Below, in pieces: positions 687 to 4,808 of a DNA stretch of 50,945 nucleotides (positions are counted from its first letter, which is position 1; each line of letters opens with the position of its first letter). The DNA is from Catajapyx aquilonaris. Taxonomy: Eukaryota. The notes beneath the pieces were generated by a model, which was not told where the DNA came from, ran no database searches, and was given only the letters and a program-made list of their open reading frames with translations. A program made the translations under genes and the position numbers. The stretch spans positions 1 to 50,945 of the forward strand of contig JYFJ02002786.1 in the NCBI GenBank assembly GCA_000934665.2, read 5' to 3'.

Positions 687-4808
<4,122 letters not shown>

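Follow-up and report, generated by a model that had tools for sequence, protein, structure and literature searches.

Gene architecture and catalytic loop

By Pfam domain order and tree position, the window (the whole 50,945-nucleotide stretch of Catajapyx aquilonaris DNA analysed here, contig JYFJ02002786.1) holds most of the gene for the catalytic subunit of an alpha-type (p110alpha-like) class IA PI3K of a pancrustacean arthropod, which bears out the identity proposed in a first-pass annotation of this DNA, an arthropod p110alpha-like class I PI3K. Specifically, the minus strand carries the p85-binding, Ras-binding, C2, PIK and kinase domains in that order (PF02192, PF00794, PF00792, PF00613 and PF00454), every match lying above its curated cut-off, and the same five-domain order is found in human p110alpha (PIK3CA; PDB 7pg5 chain A and 4jps chain A). 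The gene model, based on tblastn matches to the Daphnia pulex orthologue (P0004, DAPPUDRAFT_300912), transcript-contig junctions and canonical splice sites, comprises eight exons with 967 open codons and seven GT..AG introns of 55-433 nt (Table 1), with a G+C content of 0.36 in introns and 0.51 in exons. In model numbering, the ATP-binding lysine is residue 790, the DRN triplet spans 903-905 and DFG spans 921-923. Exon 8 carries, within 21 residues, the DFG, the histidine that follows it and the basic activation loop associated with PIP2 specificity. Because the Daphnia protein matched only from residue 1 to 961 of 1048, the C-terminal ~87 residues fall outside the window, past its first base; a transcript contig reads on in frame past exon 8 into further kinase domain, as judged by hand translation of its loose end. 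The Daphnia protein is colinear over residues 1 to 961 and 82% identical over the catalytic exon, and its identity to the window gene, about 46-82% by exon, marks the latter as a separate lineage.

Table 1. Coordinates of the PI3K gene features in the window, with the evidence for each
Feature	Position	Strand	Evidence
Exon 1, starts at ATG	4676..4808	-	tblastn to Daphnia P0004 from residue 1; gene model
Exon 2, p85-binding (adaptor-binding) domain	4408..4620	-	Pfam PI3K_p85B E=1.2e-25; tblastn; gene model
Exon 3, Ras-binding domain	3517..3974	-	Pfam PI3K_rbd E=1.6e-12; tblastn; gene model
Exon 4	3193..3417	-	tblastn; GT..AG junctions, open frame
Exon 5, C2 domain	2503..3113	-	Pfam PI3K_C2 E=2.3e-26; tblastn; GT..AG junctions
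Exon 6, helical (PIK) domain and kinase-domain start; Lys790 codon 1570-1568	1558..2297	-	Pfam PI3Ka E=1.5e-48; X5 record 12 over 1558-2302
Intron 6, 180 nt, GT..AG, splits IIFKNGD/DLRQD	1378..1557	-	Spliced out in X5 transcript; gene model
Exon 7, kinase-domain N-lobe and catalytic loop, (D)LRQD to NEEGQ	1010..1377	-	Pfam PI3_PI4_kinase E=5e-32; X5 record 12 bridges both junctions
Catalytic-loop core DRNPDN (canonical DRHxxN)	1034..1051	-	Sequence and translation; loop Asp, Arg and final Asn 61/61 in DRN group
Asn codon AAT, residue 905 of gene model, at His917 position of human p110alpha	1043..1045	-	Sequence, structure alignment, gene model; same in DNA contigs and spliced X5 transcript contig
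Intron 7, 170 nt, GT..AG; five X4 minor-haplotype differences	840..1009	-	Spliced out in X5 transcript
Exon 8; DFG 827-819, activation-loop His 818-816	688..839	-	Pfam E=1.7e-11; tblastn; transcript; gene model
GTAAGT donor after exon 8	687-682	-	Sequence

The histidine of the DRHxxN catalytic-loop motif is treated as invariant and essential across the PI3K/PI4K/PIKK superfamily. Read from position 1051 to 1034 on the minus strand, the window gives GAC AGG AAT CCA GAC AAT, that is, DRNPDN, where human p110alpha has DRHNSN; the plus-strand base at 1045 is T, and G would be needed there for a histidine codon. The motif, its coordinates and the critical base had been given in exactly this form by the first-pass annotation, which also took the ATP-binding lysine and DFG to be intact, and both are indeed found, in IIFKNGD/DLRQD across intron 6 and in exon 8, respectively. 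The loop sits in a 20-residue peptide, within a wider context of 29 residues followed directly by a GT donor. In a search of solved structures, exon 7 aligned without gaps to human p110alpha (E about 1.5e-48, with 20 residues of shared context), query residue 2 pairing with residue 806 of the 1068-residue human chains, which places Asn113 of the exon opposite His917 (human GIGDRHNSNIM). In terms of the DRHxxN motif, the histidine is replaced by asparagine and the aspartate, the arginine and the distal asparagine are retained; the gene thus departs from the motif as usually written, yet by orthology it is a member of the class IA alpha type. Daphnia and other arthropod proteins named ‘alpha isoform-like’ are identical to the window gene over 11 residues of the loop, and in the databases they are entered as ordinary p110alpha, the loop passing without comment.

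Five sequencing runs were found and four of them were compared with the window (X1, X2, X4 and X5). No difference was seen over 650-2350 in the X1 and X2 DNA contigs, or over 898-2350 in an X4 DNA contig (record 10); these three runs are not independent of the window, because all come from one sample, possibly its source. By contrast, X5 derives from a different sample, of 2022, and a different study. Its record 12 matches 686-839, 1010-1377 and 1558-2302 and skips 170 and 180 bases whose ends read CT..AC on the plus strand, hence GT..AG on the gene strand. None of the runs is on record as RNA and the type of X5 is given as ‘?’, but this contig is a spliced transcript, because two GT..AG introns present in the DNA contigs are absent from it. 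It is identical to the window over the whole of exon 7, and its sole difference in the stretch is a T>C change at 1756 (AAG to GAG, Lys728Glu), ahead of the kinase domain. In X4, the differences of the minor haplotype (at 680, 681, 845, 868, 877, 887 and 897) are all intronic, none being exonic. The exon bearing the asparagine is therefore expressed, and the first-pass suggestion to inspect reads and transcripts at 1045 is answered by AAT (plus-strand T) in the DNA contigs and in the independent spliced transcript alike.

These data bear on two explanations under which the asparagine would be of little interest. One is that AAT arose in sequencing or assembly, or is a variant private to the individual sequenced; CAT and AAT are one base apart, and the three agreeing DNA runs may be the window's own source. 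The first-pass annotation had kept this option of a one-base variant or error, which is now refuted: a spliced transcript contig from the independent 2022 sample is identical across the entire exon, and the same residue occurs in 61 of the 120 closest relatives listed, from many independent projects. It is also very improbable that we are dealing with a duplicate of a functional p110alpha gene, whether decaying or retro-copied. Such a reading could appeal to the compactness of the gene, with its short introns, and to the position of the C-terminus outside the window, but it has to contend with seven canonical introns and a frame that stays open throughout, with splicing and expression of a transcript that continues in frame past exon 8, with haplotype differences listed for X4 that avoid the exons, and with a short terminal branch in the tree (0.25 versus a median of 0.3). 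We regard it as close to certain that the asparagine at the His917 position is real and conserved and does not stem from error.

On the same strand, an adjacent open frame of 661 codons (window 5955-7940) has no Pfam match. It includes a 51-nt tandem repeat at 7220-7460 (4.7 copies, 90% matches) that encodes acidic 17-residue units rich in Glu, Ser, Ala and Val.

Taxonomic distribution and the beta/delta-type paralogue

Exon 7 was compared with 1.84 billion representative proteins (clusters at 50% identity), giving 4332 matches at E <= 0.001. Among the best 150 of these 4332 family representatives, 137 read DRH, nine DRN and one DRQ (a 226-residue fragment), and three had no motif; all nine DRN representatives read DRNPDNIM and have the activation loop of the arthropod alpha type. 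A survey of closest relatives, limited to the best 120 of 698 proteins with E <= 1e-10, returned 61 with DRN, 58 with DRH and one with NRH. The DRN carriers listed span crustaceans and a springtail (Daphnia, Artemia, the ostracod Notodromas, the copepod Oithona and the springtail Orchesella), myriapods (the centipede Strigamia and the millipede Chamberlinius) and chelicerates (spiders, Limulus, the sea spider Nymphon, a pseudoscorpion, three tick genera and eight mite genera). DRH was read in nine malacostracans, a barnacle and three copepods among the arthropods, and in every named non-arthropod listed (molluscs, Lingula, an annelid, a nemertean, hemichordates, amphioxus and a starfish). A later search with a springtail added a second springtail with DRN and two tardigrades with DRH. 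Judged from these alignments, DRN is the normal state of the alpha-type gene in chelicerates, myriapods, ostracods, branchiopods and springtails. The first-pass annotation had proposed aligning arthropod p110alpha-like orthologues, and had written that DRN orthologues both widespread and fully active would count against its reading of the loop; widespread they are. Our literature search turned up no description of an asparagine at the DRH-histidine site of a PI3K, and the available parts of two phylogenomic papers (PMC3024228 and PMC4617754) contain no mention of DRN.

Several side observations emerged from these lists. The Panulirus argus protein ‘PI3K isoform a’ (P0106) is the one reading NRH, with the loop aspartate changed to asparagine, either a cloning error or a real variant, unlike the other lobsters (Homarus and Procambarus), which read DRH; the same aspartate-to-asparagine exchange in p110beta, D913N, serves as a kinase-dead control (PMC3670040). 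A large alpha-type group (P0104, P0105, P0107-P0109, P0114-P0116, P0118, P0120, P0425, P0426, P0429, P0431, P0434 and P0436, together with P0439, P0440, P0442, P0443, P0445, P0446 and P0450) shares an 11-residue loop of GIADRN type; its members are 675-1354 amino acids long, have no Pfam match for a Ras-binding domain and sit on a long stem beside mites in the tree. Representatives reading GIRDRH were considered as insects and rejected, being flatworms, and P0155 was considered as Drosophila and rejected, being Trichuris.

A tree of 83 rows and 1048 columns, computed with FastTree (SH-like support only) and with class II-like long proteins for an outgroup, separates an alpha-type clade of 52 rows (support 100), which includes the window gene together with deuterostome alpha-type proteins and sets it apart from class IB and class II proteins, from a beta/delta-type clade of 26 rows (support 96), the arthropod part of which comprises 20 rows (support 100), insects included. 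Within the alpha type, the window gene falls in a pancrustacean subclade of 19 rows (support 98) at a best identity of 71%, its placement beside the branchiopods being left open by this tree. Homarus (P0070), Amphibalanus (P0034) and Tigriopus (P0021) contribute alpha-type orthologues to the same subclade and share the GIGDR-PDNIM context. The first-pass reading of the gene as a ‘p110alpha paralog’ therefore stands as to type; it does not stand as to an odd paralogue, the gene being in the tree an ordinary alpha-type orthologue of its clade. Insect class I PI3Ks (such as those of Tenebrio and Nesidiocoris) are of a distinct type reading G[IV]ADRHSDNIM. Likewise, insect Pi3K92E/Dp110 (Leptinotarsa P0413 and Drosophila eugracilis P0416) is a class IA PI3K that shares its domain set with the window gene but belongs to the beta/delta-type clade and carries the G[IV]ADRHSDNIM loop, making it a paralogue and not an orthologue.

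When the kinase domain of a tick ‘beta isoform-like’ protein was used as a query, all 120 relatives listed read DRH. The beta/delta-type matches listed include many insects, among them one protein entered as ‘phosphatidylinositol 3-kinase 92E’ and one from a Drosophila species, as well as ticks, spiders, Nymphon, Chamberlinius, Strigamia, mites and two malacostracans. Four DRN-bearing taxa, Ornithodoros, Nymphon, Chamberlinius and Strigamia, thus also possess a DRH paralogue of beta/delta type, and the two types of a single species share only 37-40% identity. Catajapyx itself follows suit. A second contig, recovered from all four runs, X5 included (records 2, 4, 11 and 13), matches the window only at 1356-1375 and 1558-1580, two segments that it joins without an intron; its flanks, translated by hand over 35 residues, display the beta-type signature, for which Nesidiocoris LQMIRIMDRLW (beta-type) compares with LQVI[HR]IMD in the alpha type. 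On this signature, Catajapyx has a second, expressed class IA PI3K of beta/delta (Pi3K92E) type, encoded by a gene that lacks this intron. The search for a second class I PI3K that the first-pass annotation had recommended is accordingly positive, with the paralogue present in the organism's reads and belonging to a type that is DRH in all 120 relatives listed. Within the window, tblastn with the beta-type proteins P0204 and P0294 matched only the alpha-type gene.

The springtail search listed a lizard and tardigrades but no insect among the rows showing an organism name (eight rows had none), and the alpha type appears, from its sequence distribution, to have been lost in insects altogether. 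In the available part of PMC4617754, the split between alpha and beta/delta types is dated to the metazoan ancestor, in agreement with the present results, and p110alpha is described as absent in Arthropoda by secondary loss. Since alpha-type genes are found in chelicerates, myriapods, crustaceans and springtails, this absence appears to be a feature of insects, which corrects the Arthropoda claim by narrowing it.

History of the His/Asn site

At the alignment column of His917, only histidine or asparagine occurs in the 120 aligned rows. The history of the site was examined on an alpha-type tree of 104 rows plus five outgroup rows, from which 17 of 120 proteins had been dropped as too short, and the loop columns and one P-loop column had been excluded from the alignment. 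At least four changes between the two residues are needed on this tree. In the simplest history, a single change from histidine to asparagine would have taken place on the stem lineage of arthropods, once this had parted from tardigrades, because tardigrades and all other outgroups have histidine, and chelicerates, myriapods, the ostracod, branchiopods and springtails have asparagine. At least one reversion to histidine would then have followed in a clade of barnacle plus malacostracans (support 98), along with a further change within copepods, where Oithona has asparagine and three others have histidine; an asparagine-to-histidine reversion best explains, on the tree, why malacostracan, barnacle and some copepod alpha-types read DRH where the window gene reads DRN. 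The arthropod species tree behind this history is the accepted one. As far as these alignments reach, the His917Asn replacement is clade-wide, ancient and reversible in the alpha-type proteins of non-insect arthropods.

Probable catalytic competence of the DRN proteins

The constraint on the DRN proteins was assessed by aligning the window gene to 119 of the listed 120 relatives; a single DRN fragment that lacks the lysine region was dropped, and the DRN group consists of 60 proteins plus the window gene. All 61 retain the ATP-binding lysine, G-D-D-L-R-Q-D, the loop aspartate, arginine and distal asparagine, the aspartate and glycine of DFG and the activation-loop histidine, and the basic box of the activation loop (K-K-K...R-E-R) is kept in 57-61 of the 61. 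Of the 60 DRN proteins, 44 extend to the C-terminus. The tryptophan of WFF, the equivalent of the WIF motif of the C-terminal membrane-binding helix, is present in 44 of these 44 and its two phenylalanines in 42 and 43, and the preceding W-T-T-K-x-D motif keeps its W, second T, K and D in all 44. Between four species drawn from different subphyla, identity is 64-69% for the alpha-type DRN proteins and 48-66% for the beta-type DRH proteins, the alpha type being the more conserved in six of six pairs. Loss of catalytic residues together with relaxed constraint, as would mark a pseudokinase, was not found, the histidine alone being changed. In sequence terms, the conservation pattern is the opposite of that of a relaxed, decaying pseudokinase.

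With the other residues kept and conservation above that of the DRH paralogue, the DRN alpha-type protein is probably still catalytically active, and the composite statement that the asparagine is genuine, expressed and normal for its clade and that its bearer is still a working PIP2 3-kinase likewise seems probable to us. The conservation of the other residues shows that the fold, the binding of ATP and lipid and the binding of membrane are under selection, and is no proof of phosphoryl transfer; a literature search found no activity measurement of any DRN enzyme. The catalytic loop of protein kinase A reads D166-x-K168-x-x-N171, in which the counterpart of the PI3K histidine is a lysine that contacts the gamma-phosphate and that is replaced in tyrosine kinases. 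The amide of an asparagine is located about where the delta-nitrogen of the histidine would be. Asparagine cannot act as a catalytic base. In a working, membrane-engaged PIP2 3-kinase with DRN, the loop aspartate would accept the proton of the 3'-OH, and the asparagine carboxamide would stand in for the histidine imidazole by donating a hydrogen bond to the phosphate in transfer or to its surroundings. The histidine position could tolerate a non-basic residue, because the contact with the acceptor hydroxyl is assigned to the conserved loop aspartate in the accessible portion of a review (PMC7619004).

The DRN protein may instead be attenuated or dead as a lipid kinase and act as a scaffold, as a competitor for the adaptor or as a kinase of changed output (for example, with less futile ATP hydrolysis), keeping its binding of ATP, membrane, Ras and p85 while PIP3 is supplied by the DRH paralogue of Pi3K92E type. 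We judge this possible but rather unlikely. Its grounds include what has been reported of the histidine, namely that H917A abrogates the activity of human PI3Kalpha (PMC12594814, citing Maheshwari et al.), that the DRH histidine has been proposed as the catalytic base, which would deprotonate the inositol 3'-OH, aided by two aspartates (PMC8930771), and that His-917 takes part in ATP hydrolysis and in an in/out switch under the control of a shielding C-terminal tail (PMC4207468), each statement being taken from the part of the source that was available. A second class IA PI3K of an always-DRH type is moreover present, so that canonical signalling would not depend on the DRN gene; the coexistence of both types in Ornithodoros, Nymphon, Chamberlinius and Strigamia, and the beta/delta type in Catajapyx, fit this. 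The alpha type also seems dispensable in some lineages, because insects appear to have lost it according to our own search and to the available part of PMC4617754. Against loss of activity, however, the other catalytic, lipid-specificity and membrane-binding residues show no decay in 61 DRN sequences that span the deepest arthropod splits, and the DRN proteins exceed their DRH paralogue in conservation in every pair compared. The site has alternated between histidine and asparagine only, over its at least four changes, a pattern more readily understood if both states function. Malacostracans, furthermore, keep a DRH alpha type beside a beta type, so that a back-up does not by itself account for DRN. 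The reading of the DRN protein as a still active PIP2 3-kinase is the one that we prefer.

The DRN proteins constitute a natural experiment, with asparagine at the histidine site of an otherwise fully conserved active site throughout a very large share of animals. DRN occurs well beyond this window, which makes it a lesser finding about this genome; what it offers is a natural test of the role of the DRH histidine. If DRN enzymes are active, the histidine is no obligatory general base in class I PI3Ks, and its role narrows to hydrogen bonding that asparagine can imitate; if they are inactive, arthropods own a conserved pseudo-PI3K. Most non-insect arthropods have retained, for about half a billion years, a p110alpha-type protein to which the canonical histidine is not available. 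We consider it doubtful that this protein is an ancient and strongly conserved pseudo-PI3K, acting as a regulator that binds ATP, Ras, p85 and membrane beside a true, PIP3-producing Pi3K92E-type enzyme. Were this the case, the picture of a ‘single class I PI3K’ derived from Drosophila would misdescribe insulin and growth signalling in arthropods.

A separate observation concerns the first residue of the P-loop, Ile759 in exon 6, a position held by isoleucine in DRN and by valine in DRH lineages in each of three contrasts. Raw counts make this coupling look strong. As there are only three independent pairs on the tree, a sign test for it is unable to reach 0.05, and a lizard protein combines isoleucine with histidine, against a strict pairing of isoleucine with asparagine. 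On present alignments the Ile759-Asn coupling is a lead and not a finding; across the 104 alpha-type rows, Asn occurs with Ile in 47 and with Val in six, His occurs with Val in 40 and with Ile in seven, and four rows have other combinations.
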